In this document: in pieces, positions 7,412-42,147 of the stretch
Numbering within the stretch: position 1 is the first letter of the stretch
How the letters are laid out: each line of letters starts with the position of its first letter
Assembly (NCBI GenBank): GCA_017626405.1
Contig: JAGAIS010000006.1
Coordinates: 7,100 to 71,099 of the forward strand
Reading direction: 5' to 3'
Length of the DNA stretch: 64,000 nucleotides
DNA from: Bacilli bacterium
GTDB lineage: Bacteria > Bacillota_I > Bacilli_A > RF39 > UBA660
Notes under the pieces: generated by a model
What the model was told of the DNA's origin: nothing
Database searches by the model: none
Seen by the model: the letters and a program-made list of their open reading frames with translations, nothing else
Program-made: the position numbers and the translations under genes

Positions 7412-8302
7412 ATGAATACAAAAATAGATGAATTTATCGAATATATAAAAAAAGAGAGAAATTATTCCGATTATACAGAAACTAATTATACAATTGATTT
7501 AGATAATTTTTCAGAATATATAAGCAAAAAGAAAATAAATTATAAAAGCATTACTTATAAGCAGATTACTGAATATATTAAATACTTAAAAATAGAAAAG
7601 AATTTAAATTCAACAAGTATAAATAGACATCTATCCTCACTTCGAAGTTTTTATAATTATTTAATAAGAATAGGAGATGTCGTTAATAATCCATTTAATC
7701 TAATAAAAGGTCCTAAAAAAGCAATTAAATTACCCAATTATATGAAGTATAATGAATTTGAAGAAATGGTCAATTCTTGTGATAACTCGGATTTAGGAAT
7801 TCGCAATAGAGCAATTTTAGAGACTCTTCTTTCGACGGGAGCACGAGTAGGGGAAATAAAGAATGTAAAACTCTCTGATATTGATTTTTCCAATCATGAG
7901 ATAAAAGTATTAGGGAAAGGTAATAAAGAGAGAATATGTTATTTTAACGATCATACAAAAGAGGCATTAAGAAATTATATTGATAACTCGCGCTTAAATC
8001 TATTAGGAGAGAAAAAATCCGATTATCTATTTATAAATCATATCGGTGGTCACTTAACTGATAGAGGTATTAGATTAATAATTGATAATATTATAAAAAT
8101 TAGTTCTATAAATACAAAAGTAACTCCACATACTTTCCGACATACATTTGCTACGATGCTATTAAATGAAGGATGTGATTTAAAAAGTGTTCAAGAACTT
8201 CTTGGACATGTCAATTTGAGTACAACTAGTATATATACTCATGTTACTAATGATCGTATAAAAGAAATTTATCTTCATACTCATCCTAGAAGCAAAAAAT
8301 AA
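7412..8302 (+). CDS. XerC/XerD-family tyrosine recombinase
   Basis: N-terminal SAM-like core-binding domain (IDEFIEYIKKERNYS..T...Y..DL..F). Catalytic R (TGARVGE), HxxR (HTFRHTFAT), and H/Y (LGHVNLSTTSIYTH). Start moved from 7349 to ATG 7412 to remove the overlap with the upstream gene. Confidence 0.85.
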   Translation: MNTKIDEFIEYIKKERNYSDYTETNYTIDLDNFSEYISKKKINYKSITYKQITEYIKYLKIEKNLNSTSINRHLSSLRSFYNYLIRIGDVVNNPFNLIKGPKKAIKLPNYMKYNEFEEMVNSCDNSDLGIRNRAILETLLSTGARVGEIKNVKLSDIDFSNHEIKVLGKGNKERICYFNDHTKEALRNYIDNSRLNLLGEKKSDYLFINHIGGHLTDRGIRLIIDNIIKISSINTKVTPHTFRHTFATMLLNEGCDLKSVQELLGHVNLSTTSIYTHVTNDRIKEIYLHTHPRSKK

Positions 8303-9213
8303 TTATTAAAAATATCATCATCGACAAAATATAGTACATTATCTATATTTGTATATGTATCCTTAATAGAAGAGTTTATTGCATAGGTAATCTCTTCTTT
8401 TATTGTCTTACTGTTTATATCAGTAAATATGCTATCCGTAAAATTTAAAACAAGTGATCTATCGATAAATTCATAGTTTATCAATTCAGTTTCTTCATTT
8501 ATAAATTCGACAAAATTCGTGTTATATGTAGTAGAACTCTTTAATTCATTGATAATAATTTCAATCTTTTCATTCTTATCATCAGTGATTTTGGTTATTG
8601 GTATATAATATAAAAAATCATCAATGGTTGCAGGATAATATATTGTTACTTCCTTTAAATTATTAATAGAATTAGAATTAAACTCCTTATTTATTTTAAA
8701 ACTTCTATCGAGAACTTCAGGTAGAACTTTATTATTATATTCTATCTTATTTAATATATTATTATTTACTTTTATCGTAATTCCATTAATCCCTTTTATT
8801 GAAGTTAAACTATAAACAATAGCTTCGATCATTTTCTCTTCTAAATAATTCTCGATATTCAATAATTCTTTAGAGAAATTTAATACTAATATTCCATTTT
8901 TTATGTGATAATCAAGCAATCTAGTATTCTCGGGAATAGGAGCTAGAAAACCACTTCTAAGTTTATAACTTAATAAATCATTTTTAGTCATTAATGATAT
9001 TTTTTCATTGATTAAATCATATGTGTTAGTCGATTTAACTTGGATATTCACTCTTGATACATAATTATTATTGTCAAATAGATAAATATCAGTTTCATTT
9101 GTATTTATTGCTGTAATATAGTCTTCTTTTTTAGGAAATAAAAATAATATTTGTACAACTAATATTACTGCTAAAACTATTCCAATATTTTTTAGTATTT
9201 TTAGTTTTAACAT
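8281..9213 (-). CDS. gerM: GerM-like sporulation/germination protein (two GerMN-type domains)
   Basis: N-terminal TM/signal anchor. Repeated pattern IP..T.LL...I.NGILVLNFS.E........E..MIEAIVYSLTSIKGINGI.I.VN, typical of GerMN domains. GAGGTGA SD. Confidence 0.55.
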   Translation of the reverse strand: MLKLKILKNIGIVLAVILVVQILFLFPKKEDYITAINTNETDIYLFDNNNYVSRVNIQVKSTNTYDLINEKISLMTKNDLLSYKLRSGFLAPIPENTRLLDYHIKNGILVLNFSKELLNIENYLEEKMIEAIVYSLTSIKGINGITIKVNNNILNKIEYNNKVLPEVLDRSFKINKEFNSNSINNLKEVTIYYPATIDDFLYYIPITKITDDKNEKIEIIINELKSSTTYNTNFVEFINEETELINYEFIDRSLVLNFTDSIFTDINSKTIKEEITYAINSSIKDTYTNIDNVLYFVDDDIFNNYFLLLG

Positions 9214-9243
9214 ACATTCACCTCAATTAATTATATGTAAAAG

Positions 9244-9274
9244 CAAAAAAATAAGTCGCATAATAGCGACTTAT
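9244..9274 (-). terminator. rho-independent terminator of gerE
   Basis: Stem ataagtcgc/gcgacttat directly after the gerE stop, followed on the minus strand by a T-run. Confidence 0.55.
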
Positions 9275-9480
9275 TATATTTTTAATTCATCCAATTTTAC
9301 AAGTTCTATAACAGCTTGATAGCGAGTATTAACTTCTAATTTTTGAATTACATTAGAAATATGATTTCTAACAGTTTTTTCACTAATATTAAGTTTGCTA
9401 GATATTTCTTTTGTGACATATCCTTCGATTAATAGATTGAATATTTCTCTTTCTCTAGTGGTAAGAATACTTTTATTCAT
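9274..9480 (-). CDS. gerE: GerE-type LuxR-family HTH regulator
   Basis: 68 aa. TTREREIF.LL..G..TKEIS..L.ISEKTVRNHISN..QKL.V..R.QAV.EL closely parallels B. subtilis GerE. Start moved to the ATG 5 nt after GTGAGGA. Confidence 0.8.
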   Translation of the reverse strand: MNKSILTTREREIFNLLIEGYVTKEISSKLNISEKTVRNHISNVIQKLEVNTRYQAVIELVKLDELKI

Positions 9481-9543
9481 AACTATCCTCACTTTCACAA
9501 TTATTCATTATATAATATGAAAAAAGGAGAGTAGGAGTGAATA

Positions 9544-10041
9544 TTATTCAAACTTTACTGTACAATAATAATTCCCATCTAATTCAGAATTTACATATAC
9601 AATTATGTCATTTGCCAGTGAATTAGATTCTTTTGTGTTAGCTAAGACTATTTTGATATTATTATCTTTAATTTGAACAAAAAAATTTTTATTAAATTTA
9701 TCAACGAGCTCTTTTTCTAATTTTTCTTCAATCGATTTATTATTGTTTAGGTTTTTTATTTGTTCATAAGCTTCATTTTTCTCTTGTACAGTTTTACTGC
9801 TACTTAAAAGAATTTCTTGTAACAATTTAGTGCTTTCTAAATGTTCTTCTTCTTTCTGTACACGCATTGCTGTAATGATTTCGCTTTCACTAATGGATGT
9901 ACTTTCAGCAGCTTCTTCTTTTTCACTAGTGTTATTAAAAACTAGATAATCACTATCATTAGGTATAGCTATATAATAAATAGCAAGCACTAAAATAATA
10001 CTAGATAATGTCAAAAACCACAACTTAGATTTATTAATCAT
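9544..10041 (-). CDS. spoIIIAH: SpoIIIAH-like protein
   Basis: The N-terminus KSKLWFLTLSSIILVLAIYYI parallels SpoIIIAH K..VWLLT.LS..VVLSVYYI. An acidic linker follows, then the EK.EAY......L helix and a C-terminal beta region ending V.F. GGAGG SD. Confidence 0.6.
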   Translation of the reverse strand: MINKSKLWFLTLSSIILVLAIYYIAIPNDSDYLVFNNTSEKEEAAESTSISESEIITAMRVQKEEEHLESTKLLQEILLSSSKTVQEKNEAYEQIKNLNNNKSIEEKLEKELVDKFNKNFFVQIKDNNIKIVLANTKESNSLANDIIVYVNSELDGNYYCTVKFE

Positions 10042-10063
10042 TGTTATCCTCCAATACTGTTAT

Positions 10064-10092
10064 ATTATATGGATAAGTTAAGAAATATATTA
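10064..10092 (-). promoter_or_regulatory. possible sigma-E-type promoter for spoIIIAH
   Basis: On the minus strand: TAATATA, 14 nt, CATATAAT, compared with the recalled sigma-E consensus kmATAww-14-CATAcanT. Chance matches are likely in AT-rich DNA. Confidence 0.25.
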
Positions 10093-10301
10093 CTAAATTA
10101 GTGTAAGTAAAATTCTTAAAACTCTTCTAATAATTATATAAAACATAGATATTCCTTTCTAATTCTCTTCTTACTTTATATATTAACGAAAAAAACTTAT
10201 TTTACTTTATTATTTTTAATAAAAGAATTATTTAAAAATTTATAATAAAACAAGTAATTTGAAAAAAGATTTACTATATATAAAAGTGAAGGGAGAAAAA
10301 A

Positions 10302-12344
10302 ATGAAAAAGAATTTAGTAGTAATTCAAGAGGAAATAAGCGATTGTGGTGTTTGTTCATTATTATCAATTATTAGATATTATGGAGGAAATGAAAGCTTA
10401 GAAAATCTTAGAATTGACTCACTAACGACAAAAGATGGAGTAAATGCTTACAATTTAATAGAGTGTGCTAAAAAGCATGGTTTCGATGCAAAAGGTATAA
10501 AATCTTCGTTAAATGAAATTCATATTCCATGTATTGCTCATATTAATATAAATGAATCATTATCGCATTTTATTGTTATTTATAAAATAACTAATAGTTA
10601 TATTATGATAATGGACCCATCTAAAGGAATGAATAAGATTAGTTTAAGCGAATTTAAAAAAATGTCATCGAATATTTTTATAGAACTAGTGCCAAAGTAT
10701 AAGTTTAGTTACAAAAAAATACGTAATACATCGGAGTTAAAATTTAAAAGTGTAATAAAAAAATATAACCATTCTCTTCTTAAAATAATCATCCTAAATA
10801 TAATATTTATCATACTTACACTTATATCTAGTTCCTATATTGAAATACTTAATTATAGAGATAATTTTTTCATTCTAAGTATATTTTTTATAATAATAAA
10901 CATACTAATTAATCTATTGTCATATTCTATTGATTCATCTGTGCTCATATTAAATAATAAAATTAATAAACAATTACTATTTGAATTTCTTTCTCATATA
11001 TTTAAACTTCCTTTAAAATATATCCACATAAAAGATAAAAACGAGATAATTAAAAGAGTAGAAGAAATAGAAATTATTAATAATCTTATGTCAAACACAA
11101 TTATCAATTCATTATTAAACATAATGGTTATAGTATCAATTATAATCATTGAATGTTTTTTGTTCATATTTAATTTAATCCCAATATTATTTTTAATTAT
11201 ACTATCATTTCTTATTACCATCCTATCTTTAAAAAAAATCAAATCATTTATTAATGAATCGATAGTTAATTCAACTAATTATAAAAGTTGCTTAATAAAT
11301 TACATAAGTAATATTAATAGTATATATCATTCTAACTCGACAAATATTTTCTTAAATATTTTAAATGATAAACTAAAGAATTATTTTGATACTGACTTGA
11401 ATAGCAATAGATATATTTCTAAAATAAAACTATTAAAGTCATCTATATCGACTACATTTATTCTTTTAACGAATCTAATTTTAATCTATTCTATAATTAA
11501 TAACGATTTATCTATATCAATAATTATTATAATAAATTATCTTAATAGTATATTATCTAACACTATCGATAATTTAACTAATACAATTCCAAGTTTTTAT
11601 TATTGTAAAAGTATATTGAATAAGGTCAATGAATTTTATAATATAGAAGAACTAAATAGTAATAATAAAGAAAATATCAATAATTATGATATCGATATAA
11701 ATAATTTGTATTATGAATATAATGAGTTTAATAAGCCAATAAAAAATTTAAACTTGAGTATTAAAAGTGGAGAAAAAGTATTAATAAAAGGATCTAGTGG
11801 ATGTGGAAAATCAACTCTTTTTAAAATATTGACGAAAGAATATCTTGATTATAGAGGATTTATAAGTTTGGGCAATAATTCTATTAAAAATTTAAGTTTC
11901 TCTCATATTGCAAACATAATATATTATTCTTCTCAAGATGAATATATTTTTATCGATACAATAAAGAATAATATTACTATGCATAACAATTATTCTGAAT
12001 CAGAAATCAATAAAATAATAAGTATTACTGGTTTAGAATTAATAATAAATAAAAAGTCTTTTGGAATCAATACATTCTTATATAGTGGAGGAGAAGAATT
12101 AAGTGGTGGCGAAAGACAGCTTATTTTGCTTGCGAGAGCACTAATCAGTAATAAAAGGATTATTATATTAGATGAAAGCTTATCAGAGATAAATGAAGAC
12201 TTAGAAGATAGTATTATTGACAATATTGTAAATTACTATCAGGATAGAACTATAATATATGTGTCACATAGAAGTAATAAAAATTATCCGTTGAAAACAA
12301 TAAATGTGGAAGAAAGGAGTATAAATGGAGATTCGAGAAAATGA
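10302..12344 (+). CDS. bacteriocin-type ABC exporter with N-terminal C39 peptidase domain
   Basis: C39 motifs: Q-x5-C (IQEEISDCGVCS), His (SHFIVIY), Asp (IMIMDPS). About 6 TM helices. NBD with Walker A GSSGCGKST, signature LSGGERQ, Walker B IIILDE and H-loop VSH. GGGAG SD. Confidence 0.9.
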   Translation: MKKNLVVIQEEISDCGVCSLLSIIRYYGGNESLENLRIDSLTTKDGVNAYNLIECAKKHGFDAKGIKSSLNEIHIPCIAHININESLSHFIVIYKITNSYIMIMDPSKGMNKISLSEFKKMSSNIFIELVPKYKFSYKKIRNTSELKFKSVIKKYNHSLLKIIILNIIFIILTLISSSYIEILNYRDNFFILSIFFIIINILINLLSYSIDSSVLILNNKINKQLLFEFLSHIFKLPLKYIHIKDKNEIIKRVEEIEIINNLMSNTIINSLLNIMVIVSIIIIECFLFIFNLIPILFLIILSFLITILSLKKIKSFINESIVNSTNYKSCLINYISNINSIYHSNSTNIFLNILNDKLKNYFDTDLNSNRYISKIKLLKSSISTTFILLTNLILIYSIINNDLSISIIIIINYLNSILSNTIDNLTNTIPSFYYCKSILNKVNEFYNIEELNSNNKENINNYDIDINNLYYEYNEFNKPIKNLNLSIKSGEKVLIKGSSGCGKSTLFKILTKEYLDYRGFISLGNNSIKNLSFSHIANIIYYSSQDEYIFIDTIKNNITMHNNYSESEINKIISITGLELIINKKSFGINTFLYSGGEELSGGERQLILLARALISNKRIIILDESLSEINEDLEDSIIDNIVNYYQDRTIIYVSHRSNKNYPLKTINVEERSINGDSRK

Positions 12345-12465
12345 ATTATGCACGATAACCGGTGGAGCTATAAAGATTGCTGGCTGGTTAATAGGCGGTG
12401 GAATATTTACACTTGTTGTAGGTATTATTGATGGATTTCTTCGACCATTAACATGTCATAAATGA
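12325..12465 (+). CDS. double-glycine-leader peptide A (46 aa; predicted 32-aa mature peptide)
   Basis: Absent from the ORF track because it is shorter than 60 aa. AAAGGAG SD 5 nt upstream; the start lies 20 nt inside the ABC gene. Sequence MEIRENELCTITGG|AIKIAGWLIGGGIFTLVVGIIDGFLRPLTCHK. The leader fits E(-8) L(-7) I(-4) GG(-2,-1). Confidence 0.75.
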   Translation: MEIRENELCTITGGAIKIAGWLIGGGIFTLVVGIIDGFLRPLTCHK

Positions 12466-12617
12466 GCGGAAAAGAATTATATTTAATCGTGGCAGGTTCT
12501 TCTAAAATTTCTGGAACTCTTCTAAATTCAGTCAGTAAGTTAATAAATACTCTATTGGACTTTGGAAGAGTTATAGGAACATCAATAAGATACTTAATAT
12601 CTGGAAGATCATGTTAA
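12462..12617 (+). CDS. double-glycine-leader peptide B (51 aa; predicted 39-aa mature peptide)
   Basis: Absent from the ORF track. Its ATG overlaps the peptide A stop (ATGA). Sequence MSGKELYLIVAG|SSKISGTLLNSVSKLINTLLDFGRVIGTSIRYLISGRSC. The leader fits S(-11) E(-8) L(-7) I(-4) A(-2) G(-1). Confidence 0.7.
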   Translation: MSGKELYLIVAGSSKISGTLLNSVSKLINTLLDFGRVIGTSIRYLISGRSC

Positions 12618-12618
12618 T

Positions 12619-12647
12619 AAAAAAGGACTTGTGTCCTTTTTTATTTT
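12619..12647 (+). terminator. rho-independent terminator closing the exporter-peptide unit
   Basis: Stem aaaaggac/gtcctttt, loop ttgt, then a T-rich run; begins 2 nt after the peptide B stop. Confidence 0.7.
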
Positions 12648-12653
12648 AAACTA

Positions 12654-12681
12654 TTAACAAATTTGCAATATATGATATAAT
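12654..12681 (+). promoter_or_regulatory. sigma-A-like promoter for cca (TTAACA-16-TGaTATAAT)
   Basis: TTAACA at 12654-12659, a 16-nt spacer containing TG, TATAAT at 12676-12681. Confidence 0.45.
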
Positions 12682-19324: not shown

Positions 19325-20314
19325 ATGAAAAAGAATGGTTTTATTGCGACAAGTATATTATATTCATTCTTTTTGGTATTTGTAACTCTTTTTGTAGCTT
19401 TGATTTCTGCATACTTGCACAATAGGATACTATTATCTAATATGAATGAGGCAGCATGGGATACCCTAGTTGGAATTAATAATACAAAAATATCAGATTT
19501 GAGTGTTGGTGATTATATATCTTTTGATACAGATAAGGCCGGTTCTGTTATAAATACTGGTGCAAAGTGGATTACAGCATATATAACTACTAATGGCGAT
19601 AATAAAACTTATTACTTTATTAGTGATACTTCAGCTCAAAAACAAGAAGTAATATTTAGAGCAAGTTATGATACAATTGAGAAAGTCCATGTATTTACAC
19701 CGATTTTATATCGAGAATTAGTTGCTACTCCATCGTATACTAATTCATTCTATATTCCAGGATTTAAGGTCTATTTACCAACAGTTTCACTACTAGAGAA
19801 TATTAGAAAACAAAACATTCATCCTGATGTAATGGATGCTATATTTGATATTAATAGTAGTTATATCGTGAATATGGATAAAGCAATTAGTGGATATCAA
19901 CAGAATCAATTTTATGAATATAGAATGTATAATTTTTCGCTTGGAAGTCAGCAAAACAATGTTGTGCCATCTTATTGTGGCGGATCATTTAATGGTTCAA
20001 AAGTTACATATAATTCAAACAATACATTCGGTTATATAAATGTTGTTAAAGACTCAGTAAAGAACGAAAAATATGTAGACTATTGTTCCTACGCTTCACC
20101 AATTGCATACTCTCATAATGCTAACGATTTAGTAGTGAGTACTACAGAAAATAAGCCTTCGGGAGATTTAGTCGAAAATTTATATTCAGCATCATATAGT
20201 TACCGCTTAGTTGCTGAAATTACTGTAAACACTTCTCAAAATAATACATACATTGCTGGTGGAAAAGGAAATTATATGGATCCTTATCTATTTACGAATG
20301 GGGTGAAGCAATAA
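19325..20314 (+). CDS. prepilin-type N-terminal domain protein, large minor pilin lacking Glu5
   Basis: MKKNG|FIATS plus a hydrophobic helix; position +5 is Ser rather than Glu. First gene of three translationally coupled pilin-like genes. GGAGAGG SD. Confidence 0.55.
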   Translation: MKKNGFIATSILYSFFLVFVTLFVALISAYLHNRILLSNMNEAAWDTLVGINNTKISDLSVGDYISFDTDKAGSVINTGAKWITAYITTNGDNKTYYFISDTSAQKQEVIFRASYDTIEKVHVFTPILYRELVATPSYTNSFYIPGFKVYLPTVSLLENIRKQNIHPDVMDAIFDINSSYIVNMDKAISGYQQNQFYEYRMYNFSLGSQQNNVVPSYCGGSFNGSKVTYNSNNTFGYINVVKDSVKNEKYVDYCSYASPIAYSHNANDLVVSTTENKPSGDLVENLYSASYSYRLVAEITVNTSQNNTYIAGGKGNYMDPYLFTNGVKQ

Positions 20315-20862
20315 TGAAGAAAAATGGTTTTGTCTTTTTAGAGACCATTGTAGTAATTAGTGTATTGTCAATTACCTTACTACTTTTATTCTCTTCGTAT
20401 TCCTTTATGTTGCGCAAATCACGAGAAAGAGATACTTTTGACAATATTGATTTAATATATAAAACCTATTATATTAAGGATATATTAGATAATTATAAAG
20501 CTAGTAGAGGAGCAAATGATCCTAGGAGTAGTATAATGTTCTATATTGATAAAAATAGCTTAGAGTGTAAAAAAATGGGATCTTTCAATAGTTATGTTTG
20601 TGATTTATCAAATCCTTCCTATAGTGGATCACTTTTATCAGCTAAAGCAGCTTTTGAAGCAGATAAAATCTATCTACTTAATCCAAATGAATTATTAAAA
20701 TCAAGTAATAAAAACAATTGGTTAGCTTTATTTGATGCAACAACTATCGATTATATAAATGAACTTGGAGTAGCAACAAATAAGCAAATAATGGTTGTTA
20801 AATATAAGAAAGTCTATGGCGATGGAACTTATGAAGTATTCCATTCCTCAATAGAAGTATAG
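20314..20862 (+). CDS. type IV minor pilin / pseudopilin
   Basis: MKKNG|FVFLE (Glu5) plus a hydrophobic helix; the ATG overlaps the upstream stop (TAATG). Confidence 0.6.
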   Translation: MKKNGFVFLETIVVISVLSITLLLLFSSYSFMLRKSRERDTFDNIDLIYKTYYIKDILDNYKASRGANDPRSSIMFYIDKNSLECKKMGSFNSYVCDLSNPSYSGSLLSAKAAFEADKIYLLNPNELLKSSNKNNWLALFDATTIDYINELGVATNKQIMVVKYKKVYGDGTYEVFHSSIEV

Positions 20863-20870
20863 GTGATATC

Positions 20871-21674
20871 ATGACAAGAAAGAAAAATGGAATGACTATC
20901 GTCGAAGTATTAATCAGTATACTATTAATCAGTATAGTAGTTGCTCTTTTATTTAATATGTTGATTCAAATTAGAAACGAAGACGTAGATAATACAATTC
21001 AATCGAATTTTTTATTGTCGCAGGCTATGTTTACTAAGACAGTTGAAGAAGATGCCATCAATTATGGGGTTTCTAGAGTTAGCTCTTGTAATTTAACTGA
21101 TGCTAATATTTCTATAGAATTATTAAATTCAGCATATGCTAATGAATTTAAATGTATAAGAATAGATTATGCTGCTGATTATACTGAAGATAATATTGGA
21201 TTCCTTATGGCATATAATACATTTGAAAAATATGATGTTGTAAATGGTAAATATCAAGGAATTCAAGATACATCCTCATGGATGATCCAATATATTAGAG
21301 GACACTATGAAAAAGATCAAAGCGGCCACAAATTGGGAGATCCAGCATTTAGCATCAATTATCCTGATGTTTCAACTTGGAAGAGTTTAACTCAAACAAT
21401 GCGATCACTTCCTGCAGATATAGACATGTCATATACATCATACATTAATTATACAGCAGCTCCTTCTTCAACTATTGGGGGAATAATTACTAATTATAAT
21501 GCTGCTAATTTAGTAATGCCAATTGTTAATCCTGATGGAGAACATTACGATATCAATATTGCTTTCACTTTTAATGGAAATAACAATTTTAAATGTGATA
21601 TGAAAAAACCTAAATCATTAGATTGTAGATGTAAGAGTAGTAATTCATTATGTCAAAATACATATCAATACTGA
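20871..21674 (+). CDS. type IV minor pilin / pseudopilin with a Cys-rich C-terminus
   Basis: MTRKKNG|MTIVE (Glu5) plus a hydrophobic helix. AGGTGA SD. C-terminus KCDMKKPKSLDCRCKSSNSLC. Confidence 0.6.
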   Translation: MTRKKNGMTIVEVLISILLISIVVALLFNMLIQIRNEDVDNTIQSNFLLSQAMFTKTVEEDAINYGVSRVSSCNLTDANISIELLNSAYANEFKCIRIDYAADYTEDNIGFLMAYNTFEKYDVVNGKYQGIQDTSSWMIQYIRGHYEKDQSGHKLGDPAFSINYPDVSTWKSLTQTMRSLPADIDMSYTSYINYTAAPSSTIGGIITNYNAANLVMPIVNPDGEHYDINIAFTFNGNNNFKCDMKKPKSLDCRCKSSNSLCQNTYQY

Positions 21675-31923: not shown

Positions 31924-31956
31924 TGTATATAGAATAGAAAGATAGGTTTGATGATA

Positions 31957-33975
31957 ATGAGAAAGAAAAATGGTTTTACTCTTGTCGAATTGCTTGCTGT
32001 TATTATTGTACTAGCACTCATTATGGTAATTGCGATTCCATCAGTAATGGATGCTATGAATAAAGCGAAAAAGGAAAACTTTTTCCTATTTGTACAAAGT
32101 TTAAATAGCAAAGCAACAAATAGATATATTCAAGAGTCTGATATCGATCCCGATATCGCATCGTGTGCTGTATACGATATATCAACAGATTTAGATTTAT
32201 CGAATACAGGAGAATATGAAGGTTGGGTTAAAGTTGAGAGAACACCAGTCAATTCAGGATATAACTCGGTAAGTATTGATGTTTCATCTTCTACAGCTCT
32301 TCAGGGAGTTAAATACTGTGTTATTAAAGGTAGCAAATGTGTGCCGAATACATCTTTTAAAGTGGAAGAGGGAAGTTCAAAAGCAACAGTTACTAAAAGA
32401 TTAAAAGAAGGACAAGTGTTATGTGTTAACTACCAATATACTACGGGTAATACAGTTAATACATCAGGAACAACTTGTAAGTCTTATTCTGATGGAACCG
32501 CATCTAATGATACATACGATTATAAAGTAGAAGTTACATTGACTGATAAAGCATATGTTGTTCAAGATTATGCATTAGTCGGTGGAGACAATATTAAAAA
32601 AACTGATTTTTATAAATTGTTAGATAGTAATAAGTCAGCCCCTCCTTTAGGAGATACTAAGAATCCTACAAAGATAGCGTCTCCTAGATGTAGTACAGAA
32701 GAAGCTGTTACATATAAAGGAATTACAGATACTAAAACAACACTTATTACTACGACATCAACAACTAAGAAAACATGTGATATAACATCGACAGTAAGTA
32801 ATCAATACAGAATTAAATTTAACACATATGGTGGAACTAAGATAGATCCTATTGAAACATGTACTACATGCAATAGTAATGAAACTTTACCTATTCCAAA
32901 GAGAGATGGTTATACTTTCGGTGGATGGTATTTTGATACGACATTTACAAAACCAGTTAATGGAGTATATGTAAATAACATTACAACAGAAGAAAAATAT
33001 GATTCGGGTGGATGTTTATCAGGATATAAAGATGTTAGTTTATATGCTAAATGGAATAGTGATGCAACGACAACAACAACTAAAGGAACACAAATAATTG
33101 ATCCAAATTCAACGACAACTAGAGGAAGTTCTGAAGTTACTACATCTACAACTACAGAGAGATCAAGTAATACAGTCACTACAACTACAACAAATAGAGA
33201 TAAAACTGATTATTCATTACTACTTAAGAGTTTAACTATTGGCGGATATGATATTGGTTTTGATTCTCTAGAATACACTTATGCAATAAATGTACCAAAT
33301 AGTCAAACTAGTCTAAATATATCTTATGAGGCAATGGAACCAGAAAATGTTCAAGTTACTGTCATAGGAAATGATAACTTAAATGTTGGTACAAACAATG
33401 TAAATGTAGAAGTATTCAATATCTATACGGGAAAGAGATTAATGTATAGAATATATGTTAAGAGATTTGGAGCAAATGAAGTATATGATCCTCATGCTAC
33501 TAAACCGATAGAGAATCCAAACGGAGATCCCGATGCACCAGATCCAACATTAGAAGAATCAAATGCTCAATTAAAGAGTTTATTAATATCAGGATATATC
33601 CTTAAATTTGATCCTCAAATCTACGAATACGACTTAGAGATTGCCGATGAGGAAACATTGAATGTGTCTTATAGGGCAGCATCCTCAAAGGCTACAGTAG
33701 TTGTAACTGGAAATGAAAATATTAAAGATGGATCTGTAATTGAAGTATATGTTCAAAGTCAAAATGGATATTACAATAAAACTTATAAAGTTAATCTAAA
33801 GAGAAATGTACCTGAGTCTAATACGACGAAAGTATTAAGAACTGTAGCTATTGGCTTAGGAGCGACGCTAGTTATACTACTTATAGTTACGGCAATAAAT
33901 AAGAAAAACGGTTCGAGAATAGTTAAGAAAACTAATAATCAACCATATACAAGTACTACTACGGGAGAAAAATAA
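31957..33975 (+). CDS. type IV pilin-like protein fused to a Listeria-Bacteroides-type repeat, Thr-rich linkers, two cadherin-like beta-sandwich modules and a C-terminal TM anchor
   Basis: MRKKNG|FTLVELLAVIIVLALIMVIAIPS (prepilin motif with Glu5). A pilin head paralogous to the 34070 gene. YRIKFNTYGG.......LPIPKRDGYTFGGWYFD (Flg_new-type repeat). TTTT linkers. Two L.SL.I.GY...F....Y.Y ... Y.I.VKR modules. TM VLRTVAIGLGATLVILLIVTAI. Start is 31951 or 31957. Confidence 0.7.
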   Translation: MRKKNGFTLVELLAVIIVLALIMVIAIPSVMDAMNKAKKENFFLFVQSLNSKATNRYIQESDIDPDIASCAVYDISTDLDLSNTGEYEGWVKVERTPVNSGYNSVSIDVSSSTALQGVKYCVIKGSKCVPNTSFKVEEGSSKATVTKRLKEGQVLCVNYQYTTGNTVNTSGTTCKSYSDGTASNDTYDYKVEVTLTDKAYVVQDYALVGGDNIKKTDFYKLLDSNKSAPPLGDTKNPTKIASPRCSTEEAVTYKGITDTKTTLITTTSTTKKTCDITSTVSNQYRIKFNTYGGTKIDPIETCTTCNSNETLPIPKRDGYTFGGWYFDTTFTKPVNGVYVNNITTEEKYDSGGCLSGYKDVSLYAKWNSDATTTTTKGTQIIDPNSTTTRGSSEVTTSTTTERSSNTVTTTTTNRDKTDYSLLLKSLTIGGYDIGFDSLEYTYAINVPNSQTSLNISYEAMEPENVQVTVIGNDNLNVGTNNVNVEVFNIYTGKRLMYRIYVKRFGANEVYDPHATKPIENPNGDPDAPDPTLEESNAQLKSLLISGYILKFDPQIYEYDLEIADEETLNVSYRAASSKATVVVTGNENIKDGSVIEVYVQSQNGYYNKTYKVNLKRNVPESNTTKVLRTVAIGLGATLVILLIVTAINKKNGSRIVKKTNNQPYTSTTTGEK

Positions 33976-34014
33976 TTTTCCGTAGTAAACTTGATATAAA
34001 ATATTCAATTAGTA

Positions 34015-34043
34015 TTGACTAAAAATATAATAAAATATATAAT
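34015..34043 (+). promoter_or_regulatory. near-consensus sigma-A promoter (TTGACT-17-TATAAT) of the major pilin gene
   Basis: TTGACT at 34015-34020, a 17-nt spacer, TATAAT at 34038-34043. Confidence 0.6.
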
Positions 34044-34069
34044 AAAATTATGATAGAGAGGAAATATTT

Positions 34070-34585
34070 ATGAAGAAGAAAAATGGTTTTACTTTAGTTG
34101 AATTATTAGCAGTTATCGTTGTACTAGCATTAATTATGGTTATTGCTATACCATCAGTACTTGATGCAATGAATAAAGCTAGAAGGAGTGCATTTGTTGA
34201 ATATGCTCAAAAAGTAATTAATAATACAACAACAGAATATACTTTTGATGCAAGTGCTACTATTCCTGGAGTTGGTATTTATGTTTATGACATTACTCAA
34301 GATTTAGGAAATTTACATTCAGGAAGCTACAAAGGATATGTTGTAGTTGATGCTACTGATGTTGACAAACCTAGATATATCTTAACTATGTGGGATGATA
34401 ACTATCAAATCGTATCATTTGATACTTCAAGAGGTTATCCAACAACTGATACTGCAGAGATTACAGGTGTAACTCAATCAACTAAAAATTTAACTGCTAT
34501 TGATGCTTGCTCAGCTGTTTCTTCAACAGATCCTTGTTATAATAGACAAGGCTATGTTCTAAAAGCTGGAAACGCAACAGAATAA
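34070..34585 (+). CDS. type IV major pilin-like protein
   Basis: MKKKNG|FTLVELLAVIVVLALIMVIAIPS; 171 aa. Monocistronic, between a strong promoter and a terminator. GAGAGG SD. Confidence 0.8.
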   Translation: MKKKNGFTLVELLAVIVVLALIMVIAIPSVLDAMNKARRSAFVEYAQKVINNTTTEYTFDASATIPGVGIYVYDITQDLGNLHSGSYKGYVVVDATDVDKPRYILTMWDDNYQIVSFDTSRGYPTTDTAEITGVTQSTKNLTAIDACSAVSSTDPCYNRQGYVLKAGNATE

Positions 34586-41601: not shown

Positions 41602-42147
41602 ATGAAAAAATATAAAAGATTCTTAATTATGGTTTTAGTAATAATATTAATAAGTGTTATAACAGGTTTTGTTTATGGCATTAATAACAATTATGATTTA
41701 ACAGGATATTTAGAAAATTTAAGTACAAATAATTCCCTTTTTACTTATCATTTAATATTTATCGGACTCTGTTTAATAATGACCATTAGTCTAGTAGGGA
41801 TAGTGGGAATAAGCGTTGTTATTGGATTTGAATCGATAAGTATTGGATATATATTAAGTATTTTTTATCATAACTATAAAATAAATGGTTTATTATATGG
41901 ATTAATAAATGTCGGAATAAATAAACTATTATATCTAATAATTCTAATATATTTATTCATAGTTTCTTGTATATATTTAAAAAAGTCTATAGATAATATT
42001 AGTGGTGCCCATAAAGATTACTATGCTGCAATTGTCTTACCATTATTAAAAAAATACATTATTATTACTATTATATTAATGCTTTATGATATTCTCATAT
42101 ATTTATTCGGCAACATAATTTTAAATAATTTAACAAATATGCTATAA
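41602..42147 (+). CDS. SpoIIM-like polytopic membrane protein
   Basis: 181 aa with about 5 TM helices. The size and hydrophobic pattern are reminiscent of stage II sporulation protein M. AGGAGG SD. The assignment is weak. Confidence 0.35.
   Translation: MKKYKRFLIMVLVIILISVITGFVYGINNNYDLTGYLENLSTNNSLFTYHLIFIGLCLIMTISLVGIVGISVVIGFESISIGYILSIFYHNYKINGLLYGLINVGINKLLYLIILIYLFIVSCIYLKKSIDNISGAHKDYYAAIVLPLLKKYIIITIILMLYDILIYLFGNIILNNLTNML

Follow-up and report, generated by a model that had tools for sequence, protein, structure and literature searches.

A putative secretion operon was analyzed in a stretch of 64,000 nucleotides (the window) from a Bacilli bacterium (assembly GCA_017626405.1, contig JAGAIS010000006.1, positions 7,100 to 71,099 of the forward strand), with a base composition of 27.4% GC. 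Three genes follow one another on the forward strand: an open reading frame (ORF) of 680 amino acids (aa) encoding an ATP-binding cassette (ABC) exporter (10302-12344), recognized by reading the ORF and by its Pfam domains, and two small ORFs encoding the precursors PepA (46 aa, 12325-12465) and PepB (51 aa, 12462-12617). Both small genes were identified by sequence reading and by the ratio of non-synonymous to synonymous substitutions (dN/dS), complemented by a family motif for PepA and by a profile search for PepB. The coordinates and translations of the three genes given in the initial annotation, made from the sequence alone, were exact. The two small genes had been described there as unannotated, which was not correct, since both are deposited in GenBank as 'MAG: hypothetical protein [Bacilli bacterium]' (MAG, metagenome-assembled genome; MBO5475705.1 and MBO5475706.1). 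Moreover, gene callers predict both small ORFs in every public assembly that contains the locus.

The genes are tightly packed. The start codon of PepA lies 20 nt inside the ABC gene and is preceded, at a distance of 5 nt, by the Shine-Dalgarno sequence AAAGGAG (12313-12319, +), which still falls within the last part of the ABC gene and is identical in two orthologous loci, L006 and L007. The stop codon of PepA overlaps the start codon of PepB in the sequence ATGA (12462-12465). Both arrangements, as they had been described initially, were read directly from the sequence, and L006 and L007 show the same two overlaps. PepA would be translated from its own Shine-Dalgarno sequence in the end of the ABC gene and PepB by re-initiation at the ATGA junction; with such coupled translation, the two precursors would be expected in approximately equal quantities.

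Upstream of the ABC gene, a block that hardly varies when the window is aligned with L006 and L007, AAGTAATTTGA...ACTATATAT...AGTGAAGGGAG (10253-10301, +), carries at its 3' end the Shine-Dalgarno sequence of the exporter gene, AAGGGAG (10289-10295, +). This block presumably contains the promoter; it was the only signal visible upstream of the ABC gene, where no convincing match to a sigma-70 or sporulation-sigma promoter was found. The divergent intergenic region between spoIIIAH and the ABC gene (10042-10301) contains in total three strongly conserved blocks common to L006 and L007 (approximately 10048-10072, 10152-10186 and 10253-10300), which are possible sites for an alternative sigma factor or a regulator. 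Downstream of PepB, and with no gene in between, a terminator-like hairpin, AAAAAAGGAC-TTGT-GTCCTTTTTT, is followed by ATTTT (12619-12647, hairpin 12619-12642, +). Together with its T-run, the hairpin has a folding energy of -14.4 kcal/mol (z -4.5), a stability matched by none of 200 shuffled sequences. The hairpin previously proposed as a strong terminator is thus present, and the adjective was generous, because its stem has just three G-C pairs. A simple terminator scan missed the hairpin because A-U pairs lengthen the stem into the T tract. A promoter-like site for cca (12654-12681, +; 11 of 12 positions match, extended -10) lies downstream of the hairpin; therefore, the ABC, PepA and PepB genes would make up a separate unit, divergent from spoIIIAH. 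From this layout, the three genes are predicted to form a self-contained secretion operon, transcribed as a single mRNA that ends at the hairpin at 12619-12647.

The exporter contains, all encoded on the forward strand, a C39 peptidase domain (aa 6-131, nt 10317-10694; Peptidase_C39, PF03412, E 6.3e-29), a transmembrane domain (aa ~155-411; ABC_membrane, PF00664, E 1.9e-06, 28.2 bits against a cut-off of 28) and an ATPase domain (aa ~481-660; ABC_tran, PF00005, E 4.4e-24). Its best relative of solved structure was PCAT1 (4ry2; E 7.6e-72, with query residues 2-659 against PCAT1 residues 11-685), followed by ComA (8hf4; E 3.5e-64, full length). In the alignment with PCAT1, Q9, C15, the His of SHFIVIY and the Asp of IMIMDP stand opposite their PCAT1 counterparts, and hence the domain is of the active C39 type and not a C39-like domain. 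All of the ATPase motifs were found: Walker A (GSSGCGKS), Q-loop (SQD), LSGG, Walker B (IIILDE) and H-loop (SHR). The earlier proposal of an exporter with C39 catalytic residues and an intact nucleotide-binding domain was therefore borne out by Pfam, by the PCAT1 alignment and by the ATPase motifs. The protein matched the curated models TIGR01193 (E 5.3e-81, 273.1 bits, cut-off 523.85; relatives 374-410 bits) and NF045998 (E 2.9e-72, 243.9 bits, cut-off 500; relatives 302-310 bits). It is assigned by sequence to the peptidase-containing ABC transporters (PCAT), also termed ABC transporter maturation and secretion (AMS) proteins, where it represents a divergent, AT-biased branch; its scores fall below the cut-offs of both models.

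The leaders predicted for the two precursors, MEIRENELCTITGG in PepA (12325-12366, +) and MSGKELYLIVAG in PepB (12462-12497, +), have a length of 12-14 residues. According to the published rule (PMC6363468), a double-glycine (GG) leader has the pattern Leu(-12)-x3-Glu(-8)-Leu(-7) with Val(-4) and ends in Gly-Gly, Gly-Ala or Gly-Ser. Both leaders fit this rule at positions -12, -8, -7 and -4, with Ile in PepA and Met in PepB at -12, and Glu (-8), Leu (-7) and Ile (-4) in both, the last three as recognized in the initial annotation. Positions -2 and -1 are Gly-Gly in PepA and Ala-Gly in PepB, the latter being atypical because it is not among the three dipeptides of the rule. In the corresponding column of the PepB family, Gly-Gly was present in 132 of 145 members and Ala-Gly in 10, and deeper PepB orthologues carry the canonical Gly-Gly in the aligned column (MSDYELLKISGG in loci L009-L011 and IGG in the family member P0010). 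Over the same 145 members, a hydrophobic residue occupied position -4 in 97%, -7 in 96% and -12 in 95%, and an acidic residue occupied position -8 in 90%.

The predicted mature PepA, AIKIAGWLIGGGIFTLVVGIIDGFLRPLTCHK (32 aa, 12367-12462, +), is hydrophobic and Gly-rich, with a net charge of +2 and a grand average of hydropathy (GRAVY) of 1.16, and resembles a transmembrane helix followed by a basic tail at the C-terminus; its calculated monoisotopic mass is 3377.94 Da. The predicted mature PepB, SSKISGTLLNSVSKLINTLLDFGRVIGTSIRYLISGRSC (39 aa, 12498-12614, +), has a net charge of +4, a GRAVY of 0.41, a hydrophobic moment of 0.65 and a calculated monoisotopic mass of 4168.30 Da. AlphaFold2, run on an alignment of 102 sequences, modeled PepB as one helix over residues 4-47 (predicted local distance difference test score, pLDDT, of 89 over residues 21-40), so that the peptide is predicted to be an amphipathic helix. 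Both peptides contain a GxxxG motif formed by invariant glycines, GIIDG in PepA (G33 and G37) and GRVIG in PepB (G35 and G39); the occurrence of such helix-packing motifs in both peptides is a criterion of class IIb bacteriocins (Nissen-Meyer). The PepA family shares the invariant motif G-[VIL]-x-D-G-x-x-R-P-x-x-C, which was also recorded for PepA in the narrower form G-[IV]-x-D-G-x-x-R-P-x-x-C. An atypical feature is the single invariant Cys near the C-terminus of each peptide: in the PepB family it lies 0-3 residues from the C-terminus, and exactly one Cys was found in 122 of 145 members. This pair of cysteines may serve for an intermolecular disulfide in a heterodimer, whose mass would be near 7544.2 Da, or as a functional thiol.

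Comparison with leader and bacteriocin models, indicated in the initial annotation as a check, gave a divided outcome. On the positive side, PepA showed a sub-threshold match to TIGR03949, the lactobin A/cerein 7B family (15.4 bits, E 0.012, cut-off 21.5), and another to NF038034. On the negative side, PepB did not match TIGR03949 or any other model in Pfam or NCBIfam, and neither peptide of the window matched the leader models TIGR01847, PF10439 and PF03047 at E values up to 10. Weak matches to models of this kind were obtained with PepB relatives (TIGR03949, 27 of 116; TIGR01847, 23; PF10439, 21; PF03047, 5), and the mature peptides themselves fall outside all curated models. Searches of PDB sequences with the PepA and PepB profiles gave nothing significant, and literature searches on sequence motifs, on MAG-encoded two-peptide bacteriocins with a PCAT and on the locus tags of the mycoplasmas yielded no description of the family. 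The initial statement that neither mature peptide resembles a described bacteriocin was consistent with these results, since no relative was detectable among described bacteriocins, solved structures or the literature.

The two genes belong to an extensive family. Word-indexed searches retrieved 3 clusters for PepA and 7 for PepB, and an exhaustive PepB profile search retrieved at least 187 clusters at 50% identity (E ≤ 1e-3), nearly all with 49-57 aa. The records of this family are named "hypothetical protein [Bacilli bacterium]", plus one "bacteriocin [bacterium]". Three 683-aa "members" of the cluster of the 51-aa PepB (P0029, P0032 and P0033) were rejected as a clustering or indexing artefact, as they are topoisomerase-like. 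The operon contigs of L008 and L009 are filed under MAGs of Muribaculaceae and Phocaeicola vulgatus and are probably mis-binned. No relatives were detected in plasmids (tblastn) or in viral contigs (scan), and no second copy of PepA or PepB was present in the window. PepA and PepB would hence constitute, judging by these searches, a large new family within the known category of GG peptides with a PCAT, widespread in low-GC uncultured Bacilli. From the novel pair initially proposed, the coupled GG-peptide genes behind an intact exporter are retained, and the singularity of the pair is not.

The gene order was kept in every related locus retrieved, and the same operon anatomy was found in L009-L011. 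In every syntenic locus, and in 15 of 17 metagenome loci, the gene immediately preceding PepB is a PepA-family ORF with a GG leader and a Gly-rich hydrophobic stretch. One of the two remaining loci is truncated by the contig end; the other is L021, where no PepA ORF was detectable and where a 560-aa large serine recombinase and phage-like small ORFs (L021 3288-5165, Ga0256405_10000536) immediately precede an intact PepB homologue. That operon has apparently been interrupted by the integration of a mobile element. The C39 ABC gene was found upstream in nearly all of the loci in which the contig reaches far enough, with the exception of L021. The pairing of PepA and PepB thus appears to be obligate in evolution.

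Both small ORFs are under purifying selection. The dN/dS values calculated by the Nei-Gojobori method against L006 and L007 were 0.09-0.13 for PepA and 0.15-0.17 for PepB, with synonymous sites near saturation, and the reading frames, leaders and overlaps were kept down to approximately 45% identity. Because of these values and of the conservation in all relatives, PepA and PepB are regarded as genuine genes, beyond what chance would produce. The identity to L006/L007 and to L010, respectively, was 61-72% and 49% for PepA, 75-76% and 49% for PepB, 65-67% and 47% for cca, 58-63% and 38% for dnaD, and 60-61% and 35% for the exporter; in all three loci L009-L011 both peptides are ~49% identical to those of the window.

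The reading that we favor, with moderate confidence, is that PepA and PepB are a class-IIb-like two-peptide bacteriocin and the substrates of their dedicated PCAT. The presence of GxxxG in both peptides, their cationic charge and the predicted helical structure of PepB fit this class. The putative production route, in which translation is coupled, the leader is recognized, Cys15 cleaves and ATP drives export, is well supported by homology. As known from PCAT1, ComA and LahT, the leader helix would dock in the groove of the C39 domain, Cys15 would cleave after the Gly-Gly of PepA and the Ala-Gly of PepB, and ATP hydrolysis would drive out the peptides of 32 and 39 aa. Once outside, the hydrophobic Gly-rich helix of PepA and the cationic amphipathic helix of PepB could pair through their GxxxG motifs in the class IIb fashion, insert in the target membrane and permeabilize it, and the Cys near each C-terminus could lock a disulfide heterodimer or act as a functional thiol. 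From these sequence features, we infer an antimicrobial activity for the pair, and antagonism against related gut Firmicutes would be its most likely role.

Several observations weigh against a bacteriocin. The Ala at position -2 of PepB is no documented common cleavage variant, and both peptides score below the cut-off of every curated bacteriocin model. The conservation of both peptides equals that of the housekeeping genes cca, nth and dnaD and exceeds that of the transporter, and a housekeeping-like degree of conservation is unusual for bacteriocins. The codon usage is native, the GC content at third codon positions (GC3) of the three genes (0.16-0.19) being equal to that of their neighbors, and plasmid or phage copies were absent from the searches described above. 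Furthermore, no linked gene for immunity, an accessory protein, a histidine kinase or a response regulator was found in the window or in four other contexts. Lastly, many relatives encode between the ABC gene and PepA a single-pass membrane protein of ~144 aa (L013 5411-5845, L015 5416-5847 and L017 5415-5849; also L022, L024 and L030), of which the window has no homologue; the clade of the window and several others lack it. This protein belongs to no Pfam family and matches NF045999 over its full length below threshold (of five distinct proteins scanned, four gave E values between 4e-4 and 2e-3).

The search for immunity genes covered nine ORFs of the window, seven of them small membrane ORFs, and none belonged to the bacteriocin-immunity or CPBP/Abi families of Pfam. 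The small membrane ORFs were rejected as immunity candidates, being VanZ, MreC, M23, M50 or Gate-like or without any match. In L006, PepB and cca are separated by an ORF of 100 aa (8221-8523) for which two or three membrane helices are predicted; it has its own -10-like box and Shine-Dalgarno sequence and is a possible immunity candidate in that locus. The window contains no homologue of this 100-aa membrane protein or of the CmpB-like protein found beside the operon in other relatives.

In an alternative reading, the peptides would be exported in the same way and be no weapon, but a lineage-wide, vertically inherited pair that serves the physiology of the producer (envelope, cell-cell signaling or sporulation/germination), as a heterodimer at the surface or in the membrane that is possibly disulfide-linked. 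We regard this alternative as a serious one, albeit with limited confidence. It is favored by an evolutionary rate of the peptides that does not exceed that of cca, nth and dnaD and is below that of the transporter, by the dN/dS of 0.09-0.17, by a single copy per locus at a chromosomal site that is syntenic in three clades, by the native GC3 and the lack of plasmid or viral copies, and by the missing immunity gene together with the loss of the ~144-aa protein, the sole further conserved partner, from the clade of the window, in which the peptides were retained. The likeness of mature PepA to a transmembrane helix with a basic tail points in the same direction, as does the position of the operon next to spoIIIAH, gerE and gerM in the clades of the window, L010 and L013. 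Nevertheless, no receptor kinase or regulator is linked to the pair, and in other clades the operon stands beside ftsA/ftsZ or rpe, so that the link with sporulation is not general. In addition, a cationic amphipathic peptide and a hydrophobic one, both with GxxxG, are a textbook class IIb design, and conserved bacteriocins do exist within lineages.

A more specific proposal along these lines, which we hold to be rather improbable, is that PepA and PepB, rather than being a weapon at the strain level, form a core, vertically inherited secreted heterodimer of an entire order-level lineage of uncultured low-GC Bacilli, linked covalently by their invariant C-terminal cysteines, serving the producer in an envelope, signaling or spore-related function, and related to a mycoplasma module composed of a PCAT and a MAG1140 protein.

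Both proposals, like the two-peptide bacteriocin, take PepA and PepB to act as a pair. The peptides could instead be independent and merely share the transporter, as two one-peptide bacteriocins or as a pheromone and a bacteriocin, which is judged unlikely. PCATs often export several unrelated GG peptides (PMC6363468; PMC7018657), and the PepB of L021 persists without a detectable PepA after the insertion of the recombinase element. Against independence stand the strict adjacency and start/stop coupling in every locus but L021, the GxxxG and single C-terminal Cys in both families, and the lack of a kinase or regulator for a pheromone. Finally, the idea that PepA and PepB are chance reading frames in 3' untranslated or intergenic DNA, with the ABC protein exporting some other cargo, finds some ground in the shortness of the ORFs and in the AT-rich genome, and is so improbable as to be effectively refuted already by the conservation data, with dN/dS well below 1 at saturated synonymous sites, with frames, leaders and overlaps preserved down to ~45% identity, and with a family of 187 clusters.

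Regarding the surroundings of the operon, the neighbors in the window are spoIIIAH, gerE, gerM, cca, dnaD, nth and lon, and four kinds of genomic context were distinguished across the relatives: spoIIIAH/gerE/gerM, CmpB-like, ftsA/ftsZ and rpe. The first is represented in the window by a gerM-like gene (Germane), a gerE-like gene and a stand-alone spoIIIAH on the reverse strand (8281-10041), adjoining the operon. This set is kept in the clades of the window, L010 and L013, and therefore the organism is regarded as a spore-former. Elsewhere in the window, five ORFs with prepilin-type N-termini (KNGF.., KKNGFTLVELL) were found at 19325-21674 and 31948-34585, which suggests gene sets of a type IV pilus or of Com pseudopilins. 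A 253-aa protein encoded downstream of PepB in L013 matches at its N-terminus the window ORF at 19325 (E 3.7e-9). The sole Rfam match in the window was a ribosomal protein L21 leader (RF00559, 29541-29611, 41.2 bits), and an ORF at 41602-42147, without a Pfam match, encodes a 181-aa protein predicted to have about five membrane helices.

The consequences differ with the function of the pair. If PepA and PepB are bacteriocins, the at least 187 clusters are a large untouched two-peptide family from never-cultured gut and rumen bacteria, whose predicted products of 32 and 39 residues are short, unmodified and simple to synthesize. If they do not kill, GG/PCAT export would serve a lineage-wide cellular function, a housekeeping use of bacteriocin machinery, and the related and unstudied mycoplasma PCAT module might be explained too. 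This second outcome is judged the more interesting one in view of the housekeeping-like conservation, the missing immunity gene and the one Cys per peptide.

When compared with known systems, the operon shares with ComA/ComC and Blp (8hf4) the full-length homology of the transporter and the GG-leader substrates, but differs from them in having no kinase or response regulator among the called neighbors in any of the contexts studied here. The ComC and BlpC models did not match the peptides of the window and matched 1-5 of the 116 relatives weakly. The mycoplasma module formed by NF045998 (Mbov_0121) and NF045999 (MAG1140), on which no literature was found, resembles the operon through the match of the transporter and through the ~144-aa protein of the relatives, a distant homologue of MAG1140; nevertheless, none of the scores reaches the curated cut-off of its model (500 and 35 bits, respectively), and the window contains no MAG1140-like ORF.

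The operon was also compared with PCAT1/CtA of Clostridium thermocellum (4ry2, 6v9z and 7t54). Both systems have the same three-domain order in the transporter, aligned catalytic and ATPase residues and an adjacent gene for a GG-leader cargo, and no separate accessory protein is encoded in the window. The top PDB match of the PepB profile was in fact the CtA leader peptide (7s5j_B), at a non-significant E of 0.6. They differ in the cargo, since two short peptides are encoded here versus one, and their mature parts show no detectable similarity to CtA. With respect to the class IIb bacteriocins, such as lactococcin G, plantaricin EF/JK and the lactobin A/cerein 7B family (TIGR03949), the operon differs in that no immunity gene follows the peptides and no regulatory locus is present, in the one invariant Cys of each peptide and in a lineage-wide synteny maintained at a housekeeping rate. 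The likeness to this class resides in the adjacent, co-translated GG-leader genes, in mature parts of 30-40 residues, in cationic, helical or hydrophobic peptides that each carry GxxxG, and in export by a C39 ABC transporter.

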